From positions 65,596,001-65,660,000 of the forward strand of contig NC_135808.1 of the NCBI RefSeq assembly GCF_964213995.1: a stretch of DNA of 64,000 nucleotides. Direction: 5' to 3'. This DNA comes from Mustelus asterias (Eukaryota). A model generated the notes under the pieces. It did not search any database and had not been told where the DNA came from. It was given only the letters and a program-made list of their open reading frames with translations. A program made the position numbers and the translations under genes. Positions 21,411 to 50,020 of this stretch are shown in pieces (position 1 is the first letter of the stretch; the number at the start of each line of letters is the position of its first letter).

Positions 21411-21547
21411 TCTAAACGTGTTCCTGCAGGCTCAGTGTTTAGGTGCAGTTTGACAGTGCCAAGCTTCAGGGATCATTCTAAACTTGTTCCTGCAGGCTCA
21501 GTGTTTAGATGCAGTTTGATAGTGCCATGGTTCAGGGGCCATTCTAA
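21411..21547. repeat. 66-bp tandem duplication
   Basis: tctaaac.tgttcctgcaggctcagtgtttag... starts at 21411 and 21477, with a partial start at 21543. Confidence 0.9.
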
Positions 21548-28970: not shown

Positions 28971-29285
28971 ATCGCTTCTCGGCCTTTTGGCTAAGATCAA
29001 GTGTGGTATTGACATGCTGTGCTTGGTTGAAGTCATTAGGTTACATTTTAGCTTCTTTTGAAGCAATTTTTAAAAGCGGCATCTCGGCCTTTTGGCTAAG
29101 ATGCAAATGAGATCAAGCCTTGGAGGAGGTGCAATGCCTGCTCCAATCAGCTTGGATCATGTAGATCAAGCCCAAGACAGGAGGTGAGAGCCCTGTCTTG
29201 TCAGCTTGGATCGGGAATGTCTCAACTTGTTGAGACTCTGAATTGGACTTGATTTGATTGAACTGGAATAAAAACAAAAAAAAAA
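28971..29285 (+). mobile_element. U2 snRNA-headed, poly(A)-tailed retroposed element (candidate SINEU-like SINE or U2 chimera)
   Basis: 28971-29004 is identical to U2 nt 1-34 (ATCGCTTCTCGGCCTTTTGGCTAAGATCAAGTGT). A second U2 piece (nt 7-27) is at 29082-29102. The body has several hairpins, AATAAA at 29267 and an A-tail to 29285. Confidence 0.75.
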
Positions 29286-31570
29286 TGGCAGGAATAGTTT
29301 TATTACTGTCTGACCAGCTTGATACATACCTGTTAAATCGAGACAAAAATGTTAACTCTTGGTTCGTCTTATCTAACTTTTCCCATTCCCTCTTATGCCC
29401 CCACCCCGTTTATTTTAACTTTACTTGTTCCATATTTCTGTTTGATCCCACCAATGTGTTTTATTCTTTTTATCCCCTTTCTTTTGTCCATTTCCAGGTC
29501 ACAATAGCTATTGTGTAGGTAATAATCATATCAAACTAACTGGAGTTAGCTAAAAACCAAATCTGAAATGGGTCAACTTTTTCCTTCCAGTTAATAGTGG
29601 TCTAAAATTCTGAAGGATGATTTTGTTGTGTCTATGAGAGTGACCACCTAAGTCTTTGACCATCTTTCTTCTAGCTACTAAGGGAGAGAGGTATTATTAG
29701 TTTCTGTGATCTAATCATGCCTAGTGCTCTGTGACATGCAATTTCTAATAGTTTGTCACAGATAAACTCAATAGTCCACTATAAAATCAGACTTTGGAAT
29801 CTGATTGAATGGAAAATATTTTTGTCCTATTTGTAATTGTTGTTCACCCACCCGCTGGATTACAGAAATTTGTGAAATGTGTAAAACTATTGCCTATGGC
29901 ATTTCTCTGCTAGTTAACTGACCTTTCCTTCACCTTTAGGGAGATGCCTTTCATTATTTTGTTCAGCATTCTGGCACCAGAATCAATAAATCATGAAGAT
30001 CACAAAAGGGTTTATTTAACAATCTTGAAACAAGCTGTTTAAAACTTCATAATGGCAACTTCTTTTTGACACTTGTATTTGGTTCTAAAATAGTTGTAAT
30101 TTATCCTGTCTCCCCCCGGGCTGAATTTTACTTGCCCTTAGTGGGCGTGTTTCCTATGGTGGCGGGGGGGGAAGCTTTTGACCCTAATAATATGCTGCCC
30201 ATGGCATAATACGCTTGGAGTGGACAGCAGGATGGAATCAGGAATCCCGATTTTTAAACTTAAGTAAAGGGTGGGAAGGAAAGTGGGTGGGGGGAGGGGG
30301 GGTCATTTTTCAGAGGCTGCTCTTTGCTGGTAGCAGGTTGACCCTGCTTAGATTGTACCCTCCTTGTTCCTACCCGCTCCTTTTCTTAAACCCACCCTCT
30401 TCTCCCTCCCCAGCCTTTCTCCCTCATGCTCCTAAACCCTACCGGCCCAAGACCCCGGACTTGCCTGCTCCTGGGGTCCTACATTTCAGACTCCCCTCTT
30501 TAGCTGCAGTCCCGGCAGCTGCCGCTGATGCTCTCCTGGCACTATTGGCACTGGCTGACAGCTCTGCAGGGTGGGACTTCTGCGCCAAGAGGGTCGGATG
30601 ACCCATTCAGCCCTGGTTAATAAGCCCAGCAGCACTTTATTATCATGGGGCTGCTCAGCGTGGACACAGTTAGCTTCACACCAAGGTGGTTTCTGGGAGA
30701 TCTGCCGTCCGTGCCCCCAAACTATTCAACCCCTTGTTTCTGTTTTTTCATTTATGTTAAGATCGTGGTATCATAACTTCTTGGAAGTTTGTGTTAGAGT
30801 GCTTTGAAACATTAGTTATTTGAGAGTTATGTATAGTACTACAGCCACTGATATGTAACAGAGTTCAATTGAATGGGTGTGTAAATAACAAAATGTGTTT
30901 TGAGAGGAAAAGGAGTCCTTAAAGATTCATGCAAGGATATTTCTAATTTGTGTAGATACTTCATTTTTAATTAAACTGCATTTAAAGCTTTGTAATTTTT
31001 CACTTAGAATGTGCTGCCTTCATGCATTTGACTTTTATTTAAATGTGAACTTTATATTTAAGCAGCTACAGATTTCATTCATTATCATCTAAAAACAGTG
31101 ATGTCAGTGATGTAGGTTTATTTAAGAAATTCCTTGATTCGTTATTGCTCCATTCCAGTATGTGCAACACCAAAGAGACAAAGTTCACAGCGAAGCTTCA
31201 TAAATTCAGATACATAATTATTTTGATTCAATTTATTATTTTAAGAATTATTTTATTTGTTTTGAAATGTATGGTCTTTATTAAAATTTGAAGGTCCTGC
31301 ACGTACATTGCTACACAGGCGGAGCCAGTACTACACACCAGGAACATGAGCACAAAACCTAGACCGACATTCCAGTGTGTTATTGAGGTAGTGCAGCACT
31401 GTCACAGTTCCTCTCCTTTAAATGAGACATTAAACTGAGGCCCCTTTAGCCCTTACATTTTGACATTAAAAATCCCATAGTACTTTTTCAAAAAAGACCA
31501 CTGGTGTTCTGGCCAACATTTATCCCTAAACCAACATTAATAACAAATAGATTGCGATCATTGTCACATT

Positions 31571-38800: not shown

Positions 38801-41800
38801 TGTCTGCAACATATCTACACATGTATGTTTGTACAGCCTTCTCCCTTCAGCTCACTCCTTTCACCCTCAGCACATGAATCGATAGGGGTCATACTCGCAG
38901 GACTTTGCCAGTGCCATTTTGTACATTACTTCAAGTTAGTCTGTTATTTGGCTTGGATCATACTTGTGCAATGATTTTCCTCCTTTATTGTACTGCCATC
39001 CCTATTGCCCGTCTCCTCAACTTCCTGTCCACTTATAATTGGCAGTTGGCTGGGTCACAGTGAGAACTCACGTGCTGGTTAGGTGCATTGGACGTGCTAA
39101 ATTCTCCCTCAGCGTATCCGGATAGACACCAGTGTGTGGCGACTAGGAGATTTTCACAGTAACTTCATTGTAGTGTTAATGTAAGCCTACTTGTGACTAA
39201 TAAATAAACTTTTATAAAATCTATAGTGCAGGCTGTTGATGTACCCATGGAATTATCAGGGCCCAAGATTTTGTTTTGTACCTTTCACTGTTAACCAGAA
39301 GTGATGTAATGGTCTTGGTGCTACACATTCCCTCGCCGCTATTCCATGCAGGCCCTGGCAATCTGGGTGGCAGAAATTTGAGTAGGATTGCAGAAGGATT
39401 CGGAGGTTATGCAAAGCCTGACAGGGACTGACATGAGCCTTCACTCTGTGGTCCCCAGTGGTGTGGTGGCAATTGTGAAGAAACCGAAACCCTCTTAAGA
39501 CGCATTGTAAAAAGACTTGAATATTTACGGAGCTTGAAGTGTCAAATTTTGTTTTGTGTTGTAACTGTGTATTTTAATGCAATAGTATTTTTTAGTCACT
39601 ATGATTGCAGATCACCCTTCACTTATTATGTATAATATGTCTGGGTGAATGCAAGGACAATTTGACAGCATGCCCTGAGCCATGAGGGAAACTACTGAGT
39701 ATTGATCTAATTTCCAGGTAAAATAGTAAATCATTTTATTGCCTGTTTATTTTTATAATTTGTGTTGCAACATAACGTGATTTGAACGTTTTCATTCCTT
39801 TGAAAGTTGTACTGAGCTGTGAAAATAAAAAGTTGTTCACTATCACTAAATCCTATTATTTTTTAAAAAGGAAGCACACTCTATTAAAGTAAGAAAATAC
39901 ATATTTCAGGCTAAGTGGTCTCAGTGAAGTTTTTTTCTCCTTTAGCTTCAAGGTAAAATTCCAGTAAATCAACTCATTGAAATCACTGATCTATTGACAT
40001 TCAGTATTGCAATTCACTTGTGGTCCTCAGATTAATGGATAACATTGAAAAATTGTTTCTTCTCTTCCAGACTTTTTTAAAGTTACAAAATGAAAAAAGC
40101 TTAGTCACAAAAGCTGTGCGCAATTTACACTACAGTCTCTCATACTTTGCCCAGTTTATTTAATCATGAGAGTTAAAAGAAAGTTCCAAGAAGTTAAAGC
40201 ACTCCCGTTTTTCCTAATCATTTGTATTTACAGAGAAAGGATTTCAGATTGCCATTCTAACTTTACAATTTGTTATTCCATCTAAACAGTTTTATTTCCT
40301 AACTGGCACTTCCTTGTTCCTGCTAACACCGGAACTATTCTGTTCCATTTATTATCATGATTACCAATAAGTCGTTAGAACTCCCTATTTCCTTCAGTGT
40401 TATGGTTAACCACTATTGATCCAGCATGTGGAGCTAATCAATTTATAAAGCATTGTGTTTTTTTCTAGAAGTCTCTAGTGTACTTTTATTTTTGTACTGG
40501 AGACAGAACTCGTCATCCATTTATATAAACCAAGATTTTTCAAGATCTTGATCATTTTCCCTCTTGGCCAACATTTTTCCAATGCAATTAAAATCTAATG
40601 AAGATTAATTCTGTGCATTTCTCTTCATAACCTGGTAATGATCCAGGAATTGTCCTTTGTGCTCTCCTCTGGATCTTCCCCAGTGTAACCATGATCTTTT
40701 GGATAAAGGTTGTATGCAAGATTCCAATATAGCCATTACTGTGATTGACATGAGTAAAATGTCCCATTTTAACCAAATTGCAAACCATCGAGAACCTTTT
40801 TACTTGATGTGCTTTACTGATTGCTTTGCATTGATTAAGTTGTTTTGAATAAAGTAATTTATATTCACATTGTAGTCAAAGCAGACAATGCTTGTCTAGG
40901 GATTGCGCCTTTTTAAGTTAGTAGCTGATTGCTTTCAGAACAATGAACAAAGAACAATACAGCACGGGAACAGGCCCTTCAGCCCTCCAAGCCTGCACCA
41001 TTCATGTGTTCCTAACTAGACCATCCGTTTGTATCCCTCTGTTCCCAGTCTGTTCATGTGGCTTTCTAGATAAGTCTTAAATGATCCTAACGTGTCTGCC
41101 TCGAAGTTCCGACAAACTGGTGAATTGGATCAGATGGAAACTGCATTTTCTAAATATCCTGTTTATAAGGAAGAAGATACATGCCTTTAAGTAATATGAT
41201 CCCTGTCAATATGTTTAATTATTCTGCACAATTATTGCAGCAAACTCATAATATATCTACATCATACTACTTCAATGCCCAAGTATCTTGAACCAACTTG
41301 CTTCTGAAAGATAGAATGAACCTTTATTCACTTTTTAAAAAGATTAAATGTAAAACCTGAACTTGGCACTGCAGATATGTTTAACTTAAACAAATTGATC
41401 TACTACTTATGTAGGCATGGAATAAACTAAACACAATGGAGACAAAGGCACGATTTTGTAAAAAAGGGCTGTTTATAAAGGAACAGAGATACTGAATGTC
41501 ACTGGCCTTTCTGAACTAGCTGGGCCATGCATTAATGTAGCCTAAATACCAGTGTGTTACACTTCAAACTATTGCTTCCAGCATGGAACAGAGGAAAATG
41601 ATTGTGAACATCACATATATGGTACTAATTTGAGCGCACAATCTAGGTTGACACTTCAGTGCATTACTAAAGAAGTGCTGCACTGTCAAAGGTGCCATCT
41701 TTCAATGAGATGTCAAAACTGCAACCCTGTCTGTTTTCTCAGGTGAACATAAGTTTTCATGGTAGAATTTGAAGGAGCAGCTGAGTTCTCCAAGATGTTC

Positions 41801-44920: not shown

Positions 44921-47900
44921 CTACTTTTCCTTTCTCAATGTTACAAAGCCAATGTACAGAGTGGATATGGCAAGCCCTTAATCCAACTCCTTGCTTGCTC
45001 CAAAAGTCAATTCAAATTCAGATTGAATCCAATTCAGGATCCCCACAAAAGGGGCATTCAAGATCCAAGCTGACAAGAACAAGAATTACATCTGGGCTTG
45101 TTATTGGCTAAAATATATATTTCTTGCAAGTTATTTCCATTGAGTGTGGAAATGTTGAAAGATTTGGCAGCTATTTTCTGCTGGTCCATGAGGGCTCCTC
45201 CTTTAGCTACCATGCCCTAAATGGCAACCCTGGACTTCCATTGGATTGGTCCATGATGACGCTTGGCAAAGTAGTGCAGTGGTTTGCTGCTGCCTTCTGC
45301 AGTTTGGCTAACCAAGGAATTCCCCTGCTCTCACTGACTGCTGTTCACATCTTGGAAGGACTTACAGGCTGATCGTCAACCTGTTTGGCCACATTATGAA
45401 CGCGGTCAAGTCTGGAAGTGAGATTTGAACCCAGAGCTAGGGACGCTACCAAAAAGACCTCCTTGGGTCTATGATACAGAAATGCCAAATAATATCCTTC
45501 CGTAATAAATAGAGGATAACCTTACCATTAGGGCCAGGTAAGTCAGGAAGCACTTCTTTATACAAAGGTGAATGAAAAAGGGGAACTCTCTTCCCCAAAG
45601 GATTCTTTATTCCTGCCTAATTGAAACTTTCAAGGCAAATCAAATTATTTTGAGAGGTCAAGAGATTAAGGAGCCAAGGCAGATCAATGGAATTTTGGCC
45701 TGGTTTGGGCTTGATCCAATTGAATAGCAAAACATATTTGAGAGGCTAAATGATCTAGTCCTTTTTCTAAGCTCCACATTGAATTCACTAACGTGCCAGT
45801 ATCACACAATGGTGGATTCTGAAATTTTAAACCCCAGACAAATAAAGCTAAATTGTTGCTTCAGTGTTTCAAATAAAAACTTAGTGAGTCAGCTGGTTAA
45901 AGGAATTGAGAGTTGCAACCCTGGAAAGCTTTAAGAACTTTATTTCTTCCTATCTCAAATCTACTTGAAGCTGTTTTAACTTTAGCTCTGCAATCAGTCT
46001 GCATCAAACAACTTACTCAAAACTACATTATCCAAACCCCTCATCCATTTGAAGAACTGAACCAGTACTTTTCAATCATCTTTCGCGCAAAGAAGTCAGT
46101 TAATAAAGTCTTTGTAACTTGATGTTTTGTTGCTGTTACCCTTTGAATCCATTTCTTTTTGGAACGTAGGCTGCCCAAGTTTATCTCCAATATTTTAGAT
46201 ATAATCTTAGCAAAAAATCACAGAGTGAACTCATTTCAAATGCTCAGTCTGTGCATAACAGTTTTATAAATGGTAGCCATGATTTTGTGGACTTGGTTTC
46301 TCATAATCCTTACTATTCTTAATTGCGTCATGATTAAGTCCAAAAATGATTGCTGAAATGGTGTATATTTTTACAATTGATCCTTTCTCTGCTTTATGTA
46401 TGTTGTGATGGTTTTGCAATCAGCAAAAATCCTTGCATACCTCACTCTTCTTCATGAGTGAAGTTAGTGAGTGCCAGGGGCTCATTGAACATGAAGTGCT
46501 TCCTGTTTTCCTACAAATTCAATGTTGTTCTCCTGCAACATTGTCCCCACTCCAAACATGCACACACATGTGCAGATACTCACATGTAGGAGATCCAATA
46601 CTTGTGTCCAGTATTGGTGATTTATTGAAGAATTTCAGAAAAAAATGGGAAATGCCATTTTAAATCTTTTTACAAACATTATTTCAGCAATGTAATTGTC
46701 AGACAAACATTACTTTTGCTGCCAATTAAAGGTTCTATAATATACTGCCAATTGAGCTTTATATGTTTAACCTTTTTTATAGTACATTGAATGAAGATAA
46801 TTTCACAACGTTTGCTATAATTTAATCTGTTACAAAATATGGTTACAAAGATGACAGACCAACTGGCCCATCCATTGATGATCCTTTATGTATTATCATA
46901 CAGACAGGTACAGTTATTCACGGCTTTGTGAATAGATTTCCAGCTCTCTCTCGCTCTCTCTCTCTCGAAGAGATTCAGAAAATCTGTCTTCACCACATAA
47001 ACGGCAAACCCGGTCTACAGGTGCAATGCTCTCTGGAAAGACAGAATTGCCTTATATCCAGCCCAGTACTGTGCCCTGATATAACTTGTAAGAGTGACCT
47101 TGGTCCTCTCTACCTAATGCACTTGAAATAATAAGCCAATGGAAATACAATTGAGTCTCTTGATTAGAACACCCCTGACTCTACACTGCTCTGCATAATA
47201 CAGACACGCACCTCTTGTGTGCCTACCTGGATAACTAAGGTGTTTTAATCATGTCTTTCTTCCCTGCATCCTTTCCAATGCCTCAATATCCCCACCATGT
47301 GATGGGAACAAAATTGGACACAGAACCCTATTGAAACCTAACCACACCCTTACCAGGACAAAATGATACTCTTTTCCTCTGCTGAAGCCAACCTAGAACT
47401 CTGTTTGCTTTAGCAACAGCTTTATTGCATCGGGCATGAATCTTTCAAGACTGAGTTTATTTAAGTATTTTATTTATTAGTGTCACAAGTAGGCTTACAT
47501 TAACACTGCAATTAAGTTACTGTGAAAATCCCCTAATCACCACACTCCGGCTCCTGTCCGGGTACACTGAGGGAGAATTTAGCACTCAGACTGTGGGAGG
47601 AAACCAGAGCACTCATAGGAAACCCACGCAGACATGGGGAGAACGTGCAGACTCCTCACAGACAGTGACCCAAGCCGGGAATCGAACCCGGGTTCCTGAA
47701 GCTGTGAGGCTGTGCCACCCCCGTGTATGTATTACATGTATGTATTACATATATAAAATGCTAAATATGATTTAGATTATGTCGGAACTACAAAAATTTA
47801 TCACGACTCAGCTGGTTATTCATCAATACAATACATTAAAAAGCTGTTGCTTTATTAAAATGAGCCACTTCATATAACAAGATTATTGACAATAGAAGGA

Positions 47901-49134: not shown

Positions 49135-50020
49135 AGGGAACATCCTCCGGGATCAGTCAGGTTCACTGGAATATCTGTAGGGAAGTCAAATTCACTAGAA
49201 TATCTGCAGGGCTCAGTCAAATTCGCTGGCATATCTGCAGGAATCAGTCAAGGTCACCGGCATATCTGCAGAGATCAATCAAGTTCACTGGAATATCTAC
49301 AGGGATCAGTCAAGTTTGCTGGAATATCTGCAGCGATCAGTCAAGTTCGCTGGAATATCTGAGGATCAGTTAAGTTCACTGGAATATCTGCAACGATCAG
49401 TTAAATTCACTGGAATATATGCAGGGATCAGTCAAGTTCACTGGAATATCTGCAGCGATCAGTCAAGTTCGCTGGAATATCCCCTGCGGATATTCCAGTG
49501 AATTTAACTGATCCCTGTGGATATTCCAGCAGACTTGACTGATCGCTGCAGATATTCCAGTGAACTTGACTGATCCCTGCAGATATTCCAGTGAATTTAA
49601 CTGATCCTCACGATCAGTTCAATTCACTGGAATATCTGCAAGCATCAGTCAGGTTCACTGGAATATCTGCAGGGATCAGTCAAGTTCACTGGAATATCTG
49701 CAGGGATCAGTCAAGTTCACTGGAATATCTGCAGGGATCAGTCAAGTTCACTGGAATATATGCAGGGATCAGTCAGGCTAGCTGGAATATCTGCGGGGAT
49801 CAATCAAGTTCACTGGAATATCTGCAGGGATCAGTCAAGTTCACTGGAATATATGCAGGGATCAGTCAGGCTAGCTGGAATATCTGCGGGGATCAATCAA
49901 GTTCACTGGAATATCTGCAGGGATCAGTCAAGTTCACTGGAATATATGCAGGGATCAGTCAGGCTAGCTGGAATATCTGCGGGGATCAGTCAAGTTCACT
50001 GGAATATCTGCAGGGCTCAG
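49135..50020. repeat. 31-bp minisatellite with an inverted block and 93-bp higher-order repeat
   Basis: Unit AGGGATCAGTCAAGTTCACTGGAATATCTGC, about 28 copies; units at ~49483-49610 are reverse-complemented. Confidence 0.97.

Follow-up and report, generated by a model that had tools for sequence, protein, structure and literature searches.

The twin hairpin modules at positions 29111–29158 and 29164–29212 of the window (the whole 64,000-nt stretch of Mustelus asterias DNA that was analysed) are read here as the body of a SINE built from U2 and U4 pieces, which was likely moved by a Tx1 retrotransposon and transcribed from U2 genes, and whose hairpins likely serve as handles for the Tx1 RNP. 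We assign this reading a probability of about 0.6. An earlier note on the same DNA, made from the letters alone, had described the two modules and had proposed that their RNA structure was under selection. This proposal is supported across the subfamilies of the element by consensus pairs that were kept, by two-sided changes and by an excess of G·U over A·C. The origin of the modules from the U2 branch-point stem-loop (BSL), a third hairpin further upstream and selection on source elements are points that were absent from that first description.

The modules lie within a retroposed, A-tailed SINE

The element that holds both modules is a 315-nt, A-tailed SINE copy on the forward strand (28971–29285). 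Its parts are as follows.

28971–29285, + strand: whole SINE of the young U2-headed subfamily, with A-rich tail (from copies, ends and flanks)
28971–29009, + strand: U2 head, U2 nt 1–39, with stem-loop I and the branch-recognition sequence at 29003–29008 (38 of 39 nt identical)
28995–29028, + strand: third (head) hairpin, predicted 15-bp stem of U2 nt 25–39 and an antisense-like arm (from folding)
29029–29052, + strand: decayed remnant of the U4 5′ stem-loop, U4 nt 23–47, clear only in older subfamilies
29051–29064, + strand: 5-bp hairpin at the U4 junction, loop AUUU in the family and UUUU here (from folding and copies)
29063–29071, + strand: 9-mer resembling an Sm site, identical to U4 nt 116–124, predicted to be single-stranded
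29079–29104, + strand: second copy of U2 stem-loop I with extended stem (from alignment and folding)
29111–29158, + strand: module 1, duplicated arm of U2 nt 25–31 and rewritten U2 nt 22–61, a locked BSL (from alignment and folding)
29164–29212, + strand: module 2, tandem duplicate of the same U2-derived module (from alignment and folding)
29219–29236, + strand: hairpin homologous to U2 stem IIb, about U2 nt 68–84 (from alignment)
29267–29285, + strand: AATAAA signal and A-rich tail (from sequence)

A search of the 3.68-Gb genome returned 3186 candidates for the SINE, and among the 40 that were scored the best other copies were 96–97% identical across all 315 nt. Exact two-arm patterns gave 2554 and 1292 genome matches (3,846 together) and none with the reversed controls. 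The copies have flanks that are unrelated to each other and tails that are A-rich. Target-site duplications of at least 8 nt were found in 14 of 47 full-length copies, compared with 1 of 235 mismatched control pairings; the other 33 copies have no duplication of this length, and none was found in the flanks of the window copy. At the level of sequence, the element is shown to be a retroposed family with subfamilies and not a set of independent chimeric retrocopies: its internal junctions are common to copies that are 96–97% identical, and several subfamilies can be distinguished. Only 13 of 57 copies that bear the linker start with U2 nt 1–4. No open reading frame of at least 120 aa overlaps the element. 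Runs of 4 or 5 T are present in the head, the linker and the second stem-loop I, which argues against Pol III transcription.

Near-identical SINE sequence was also present in DNA sequencing runs of four other organisms (85–96% of the sampled words). One run labelled as fish metagenome contained less than half of the sampled words and was left out, and no RNA runs were listed among the runs that matched SINE words. Pattern matches in viral and metagenome sequences (2 and 3, respectively) had no similarity to U2 or to the SINE and were treated as chance. In one locus, a 5′ fragment of 18S rRNA (L073, 1–496, − strand) lies beside a cluster of SINE copies.

Fold of the twin modules

The module pattern occurs twice in the window and was not found in 100 shuffles. 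Folded singly, modules 1 and 2 reach −22.3 and −21.2 kcal/mol (z −3.3 and −3.5), with an 8-bp outer stem containing one bulge, a 1×3 internal loop and a 9–10-bp inner stem. The 231-nt region 29030–29260 has a folding z of −5.06. As recognized in the earlier note, the 5′ arm is identical to U2 nt 25–31, here compared with the U2 genes of the same genome. The outer arms do pair in the single modules as had been described, but the arm sequences are repeated, so that over the full 315 nt of RNA other registers compete with the outer stems. Whole-RNA folding gives the window copy outer-stem probabilities of 0.17 and 0.31 for modules 1 and 2. Among 30 copies these probabilities exceed 0.5 in 19 and 17, respectively, and those of the middle stems in 29 and 25.

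Other details of the first description had to be revised. Both middle stems are paired, but they are not fully exchanged: four of the six pairs differ on both sides, and the central G–C and A–U pairs are common to TTGGAG/CTCCAA and CAAGAC/GTCTTG. The apex, which had been regarded as fixed, is variable. The commonest loop of module 1 is not the one in the window (25 vs 15 of 50 copies), the GGAGGTG motif present in both modules sits in different registers of the alignment, and other subfamilies carry unrelated module loops of 7–10 nt. The hairpin at 29219–29236 is present but folds with 7 bp and a 4-nt loop, not with the TT loop given for it. The UUUU-loop hairpin, which had been likened to U2 stem-loop I, comes from the U4 junction; its loop (29056–29059) is a rare variant, AUUU being found in nearly all other copies, and the true copies of stem-loop I are located at 28977–28996 and 29079–29104.

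The modules are rewritten copies of the U2 BSL

The U2, U4 and U1 genes of the same genome were used as reference snRNAs. With the head left out, six older loci are collinear with the U2 gene from about nt 21–26 to nt 141–190 (0 of 300 shuffles for each). Because these loci align collinearly, alignment shows each module to be U2 nt 22–61 in rewritten form, preceded by a duplicated U2 arm (nt 25–31). The window modules alone are too diverged for a direct match to U2 (16 and 11 of 300 shuffles), so their U2 origin rests on the intermediate loci. For the hairpin homologous to stem IIb, older subfamilies are likewise collinear with U2 (0 of 300 shuffles), and the window copy alone gives 11 of 300.

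The inner ten pairs of the module are in the BSL register, with U2 position 27 opposite 43 and position 30 opposite 40. In human U2 the BSL contains an A30–C40 bulge and a U27–U43 mismatch, and the substitutions A30G and U43A were tested as stabilising; according to the accessible text of that study, little or no splicing of the reporter remained with U43A or with the double mutant, and U2 levels were low (PMC13019295). The subfamily series contains the same BSL-stabilising changes as those engineered in human U2: the 30:40 position is G–C in all seven subfamily consensuses (A30G), and the 27:43 position is U–A in family A (U43A). U2 nt 21–61 folds with −2.9 kcal/mol, compared with −21 to −22 kcal/mol for the modules. 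The branch-recognition hexamer, U2 nt 33–38, is mutated in every module class. Whereas the BSL of U2 is weak and must open, the module is locked; its loop is mutated, and a newly formed outer stem takes up part of stem IIa.

Pairing has been kept across subfamilies

The module alignment comprised 150 of 167 distinct 48–49-nt modules, 17 of the 49-nt ones being left out. Of its 2700 module cells, 91.5% are paired, compared with 28–51% in slid controls. Two-sided changes were observed in 218 cells, compared with 80 ± 6.5 after shuffling, where cells represent sequences and not independent events; the number of pairs with a two-sided change (8 vs 7.4 shuffled) shows no excess. Four middle pairs switch type in 34–71 of the 150 modules. 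At the subfamily level, pairing was kept or gained in 22 of 27 changed pairs. Across the seven subfamily consensuses, 62 of 70 pairs were kept, compared with 34.7 ± 7.3 in a neutral simulation (2/100,000) that placed the same numbers of substitutions at random under an assumed lineage order, with classes that are partly defined by stem sequence and include two of only 2 and 3 members. G·U cells outnumber A·C cells (189 vs 79), as would be expected from selection on the sense RNA but not from repair of DNA palindromes. Statistically, pairing has been kept on the sense strand across the subfamilies.

The outer stem also changes: in other subfamilies one of its pairs goes from A–U through G·U to G–C (1 and 7 of the 8 loci shown), in loci that were found via their flanks rather than their arms and with loops left free. 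The apparent invariance of the arms is in part due to the search patterns, which required them. RNAalifold applied to all 150 decayed copies kept only 8 pairs. In 30 young copies, private changes amount to 24 in 84 stem nt and 18 in 42 loop nt. These changes are not clearly rarer in the stems and are compatible with near-neutral decay; selection on inserted copies was rejected for this reason, and selection is placed on the source elements and not on the window copy.

Head, linker and order of the subfamilies

Rfam reports a U2 match at 28971–29169 with 52 bits, which rests on the head, while true U2 genes score about 190. A U2 gene or a plain pseudogene was considered and rejected, as the element is not collinear with U2 nt 1–191 and stems III and IV are absent. 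The branch-recognition sequence of the head is intact in the family and is buried in the predicted 15-bp head hairpin; of 61 heads, 37 have all six of its nucleotides paired and 58 have four or more paired. This hairpin folds on the sense strand only (−10.6 kcal/mol, vs −1.6 kcal/mol for the antisense), its base resembles that of the modules, and its stem is lengthened in the youngest subfamily. The junction between head and linker does not vary inside a subfamily, and head and linker are complementary in sequence. A fold-back copy may have been the origin of the head arm (L069), and the arm just behind the head may be a decayed U2 nt 40–57 (L152).

The U4 part of the linker is best seen in loci L058 and L131, in which 21 of 25 positions are identical to U4 nt 23–47 (0 of 300 shuffles); in the window copy alone it is not significant (384 of 1000 shuffles), with a weak U4 match at E 2.8. 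A U2 origin of this stretch was rejected, the comparisons with U2 giving 872 and 526 of 1000 shuffles and those with U4 giving 2 and 6 of 1000. The Sm-site-like 9-mer lacks the G that follows it in U4 and is too short to be significant alone.

The older family (2266 candidates) consists of a U2 head, one module, a hairpin and then the U2 Sm region and stem III. Its only Sm site is a changed U2 one, and the modules predate the U4 piece. A related subfamily is composed of a U1 nt 1–95 head, U4 nt 23–47, the U4 Sm-site 9-mer, U2 stem-loop I and two modules, and later subfamilies have a U2 head in place of the U1 head. Judged from identity and structure, the window copy would belong to the youngest U2-headed subfamily. 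Modules became more numerous: the older family has a single one, the young family two and, in addition, the head hairpin. Direct alignment to the genes of the same genome identified the U1 and U4 pieces, and cmscan on seven loci did not detect them. In four loci (L058, L129, L131 and L146), U1, U4 and U2 pieces are combined in one element and part of U1 is out of order. A one-module relative of the older type also lies in the window itself, at 44928–45092 on the − strand, with the U2 Sm region and stem III kept (81% over 166 nt).

A Keno-like Tx1 family shares targets with the SINE

The earlier note had suggested a connection to a retrotransposon, and this is supported in that the modules are part of a SINE tied to a Keno-like Tx1 family. 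A Tx1 element located in a U2 array (L205; domains PF03372, PF00078 and PF13966) contains ORF1 with ZCCHC3-type RNA-binding domains and zf-CCHC, and ORF2 with APE, RT and zf-RVT domains. Its 3′ end lies at U2 nt 37/38, the target site that the available portions of the literature report for Keno, and the U2 target sequence that comes after it is also the same (PMC6136364, PMC4640811). A Tx1 element in every unit accounts for the period of about 8 kb in this array. In this array (L205 929–6622, contig C24, ~44.8–44.9 Mb), Tx1 has been amplified together with U2 in at least 15 near-identical units with a period of ~8,035 bp; the units of the other U2 array recur every 1,833 bp. The Tx1 family, with 5388 candidates of which the best 150 are 94–100% identical, is by these sequence measures abundant and young. 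Its members begin with a U2 head, and duplications of 15–18 nt were found in 5 of 10 full-length copies.

The two families have targets in common. SINE tails stand directly before U2 nt 38 onward in 8 copies (control 0), one of which (L279) is 95% identical to the window SINE body; these exact U2-site insertions number only 8 against thousands of SINE copies. Only 1 of the 15 dispersed Tx1 top hits ends at U2, and this SINE follows within ~20 nt of the tail in 4 of 15. The SINE 3′ end was compared with the Tx1 3′ UTR in six comparisons, one of which reached 7 of 1000 shuffles and the others were not significant. A LINE-derived 3′ tail is weak or absent and was rejected as the connection, so the link between SINE and Tx1 rests on targets. 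From these shared targets, mobilisation of the SINE by the Keno-like Tx1 is very probable. The arm of the older family has a marginal similarity to the Tx1 5′ UTR (12 of 1000 shuffles), and at the Tx1 5′ end the U2 head of that element is predicted to form a hairpin with a comparable short closing duplex. Tx1 ORF1 (L205 1208–2074) matches both Pfam RNA-binding domains that are named after host ZCCHC3, a protein for which double-stranded RNA binding through zinc fingers is reported in the accessible text of PMC10351740. SINE copies and a full-length Tx1 copy were also observed between U4 genes (L193, L195 and L268, contig C1418).

SINE copies fused to U2 promoters

Nine SINE copies have their first nucleotide at +1 immediately after the upstream motif of a variant U2 gene class. 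Three of them have 235–250 nt of the U2 upstream region and lie inside U2 arrays. The other six carry only ~10–93 nt of U2 upstream sequence as a 5′ extension, five of these behind a stray U2 fragment. As U2 upstream sequence occurs as a 5′ extension on dispersed copies, templates appear to have been made at U2-fused loci. Two further promoter-fused copies, L284 and L276, stand one behind each promoter class. No promoter-fused copy of the exact subfamily of the window was found, the closest being 92% identical, and the main-U2-promoter pattern gave 0 matches before the youngest subfamily, a pattern that misses decayed cases such as L276. In line with these junctions, promoter-driven source genes have probably arisen where the SINE inserted at nt 37/38 and its 5′ junction was seamless. 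The second class of U2 genes (L269 8797–8981 on the − strand, L271 5271–5455, and L284) is 90% identical to the main class; it forms an array with a period of ~450 bp on contig C21, has a different upstream region and is heavily invaded by Tx1 and the SINE.

Proposed mechanism and alternatives

The mechanism that we propose starts from the U2 BSL, which, as the alignment shows, was duplicated, strengthened by A30G (and by U43A in one subfamily) and mutated in its branch-recognition loop. Insertion would be carried out by the Tx1 endonuclease and reverse transcriptase, for the most part at dispersed sites and in some cases at U2 nt 37/38; there, the SINE would be joined to the U2 promoter through a seamless U2 5′ end. 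Such U2-fused loci would serve as source genes that Pol II transcribes from +1 to the AATAAA and A-tail of the SINE itself. The weakest steps are that the long duplexes with a fixed base and a 1×3 internal loop may be bound by Tx1 ORF1p or ORF2p, and that more modules may lead to more mobilisation. A U2 sequence disarmed for splicing would be a side effect or an additional advantage. We put the role of the modules as Tx1 RNP handles at slightly below even odds; it is suggested because pairing matters and the sequence of loop and middle stem does not, because the number of modules rose and because the Tx1 head hairpin is similar. Somewhat more tentative still is the complete sequence of events in which the SINE would re-enter U2 genes via the Keno endonuclease and take over the promoter, with the BSL turned into a Tx1-binding module and the intron-engaging sequences buried.

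The U2 heads could instead have been added by template switching to U2 snRNA at insertion, with transcription from chance flanking promoters, as Kojima proposes for SINEU in the accessible text (PMC4494074); the promoter-fused copies would then be dead ends. Template jumps to U2 do occur, as indicated by extra U2 5′ fragments before L287, L288 and L292–L294, and pattern searches found no promoter-fused copy of the youngest subfamily. However, the junction between head and linker is fixed in each subfamily, the linker is complementary to the head, and dispersed copies have 5′ extensions of U2 upstream sequence, so that we consider this route doubtful, with a minor but real chance. The hairpins may also have been selected to disarm U2 sequence with no binding of a Tx1 protein, since an abundant U2-like RNA would disturb branch-site recognition or meet snRNP quality control. 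All three branch-recognition segments are neutralised, two by mutation in locked stems and one by burial in the 15-bp stem, and the module has both A30G and U43A, of which U43A and the double mutant left little or no splicing in human U2, as given in the available part of PMC13019295. Yet a mutated loop needs no further pairing, while here pairing was kept through later changes and the module was duplicated; in the same text (PMC13019295) U43A also lowered U2 levels, which is no help to an RNA that needs to accumulate. Selection for disarming without Tx1 binding is accordingly unlikely. A hijack of snRNP biogenesis, in which the Sm-like site would recruit the Sm ring for stability or nuclear import and the modules would be a scaffold, is improbable. 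The use of SRP9/14 by Alu offers an analogy. An exact U4 Sm-site 9-mer is present in 77 of 97 copies (a count that depends on a fuzzy match), whereas the neighbouring U4 stem-loop has decayed, and the 9-mer is predicted to be unpaired with a probability of 0.69–0.96 in 30 copies, but the G after the U-run has been lost, and the modules are older than the U4 piece, the one-module family having only a changed U2 Sm site.

Compensation could in principle arise with no selection, by template-switch repair of quasi-palindromes or by conversion between arms, given that the arms are repeated and partly self-complementary and that the head arm may be a fold-back copy (L069). Such repair would give perfect DNA palindromes, whereas the bulge and the 1×3 loop persist, G·U exceeds A·C (189 vs 79) and the head hairpin is formed on the sense strand only (−10.6 vs −1.6 kcal/mol), which makes this explanation very improbable. 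The small catalytic or processing motif that had been put forward in the earlier note would correspond to a self-cleaving ribozyme that frees the SINE from a longer transcript, and source copies in tandem U2 arrays could indeed be read through. We give this idea almost no weight: Rfam ribozyme models had no match to 29075–29290 at E up to 10, nor did another Rfam family account for the modules; the module loops vary without constraint, and both modules have a central position in the element, away from its ends.

Relation to known elements

Our preferred reading, a U2/U4-built SINE likely moved by Tx1, places the element close to SINEU. In the accessible text of Kojima 2015 (PMC4494074), SINEU-1, -2 and -3 are reported only from crocodilians, target Mariner-N4 and have their transcription left open, a description that is repeated in the available part of a 2017 review (PMC5381603). 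As described there (PMC4494074), the SINEU elements have U1/U2-derived heads that were added repeatedly, partial duplications, a length below 500 nt, a poly(A) tail, internal oligo-T, insertion with and without duplication, tandem insertion and a Keno-related Tx1 partner deduced from shared targets. The features found in the present family are the U1/U2 head, a short non-coding body with an A-tail, copying from master elements, oligo-T and targets shared with Tx1. SINEU-3 resembles a rewritten U2 gene, as does the older family here. The accessible part of the SINEU paper contains no U4 piece and no structural analysis (PMC4494074). In contrast, the element described here targets U2 nt 37/38 or dispersed sites, contains U4 pieces, has a structure-conserved BSL module as its body and has copies behind U2 upstream regions. 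Likened to SINEU by described features and not by consensus sequences, it is a new SINEU-type family. In the titles and opening lines of abstracts that the literature search covered, an snRNA-headed SINE was not found for any further group of vertebrates, and neither a U4 piece nor an analysis of structure came up; an entry for the family in Repbase or Dfam may exist.

The partner resembles Keno, as far as the available texts describe it, in being a Tx1 element with an APE-type endonuclease and RT that ends at the Keno site (PMC6136364, PMC4640811). Unlike Keno, the SINE is non-coding, and the Keno-like family here is only partly U2-specific. Like R2 in the accessible account (PMC4494074), the SINE would be a promoterless element that uses the promoter of the multicopy RNA gene it enters; unlike R2, it is non-autonomous, resides in Pol II snRNA genes and has no ribozyme. 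The family supplies candidate U2-fused source loci and a co-resident Tx1 with long open frames, and its subfamily series records compensatory changes step by step. Through it, the expression of a SINE with no internal promoter and the RNA structure that Tx1 recognises in trans become testable. If the SINE does dwell in U2 genes as proposed, this would explain how snRNA-headed SINEs are transcribed and would provide the first RNA determinant of Tx1 trans-mobilisation.

The window contains three further features. A CPEB3 (HDV-like) ribozyme model matches 39392–39467 on the − strand with 35.5 bits (gathering score 35), a tandem array of 28 copies of a 31-nt unit occupies 49149–50020, and a 66-nt duplication is present at 21411–21547.
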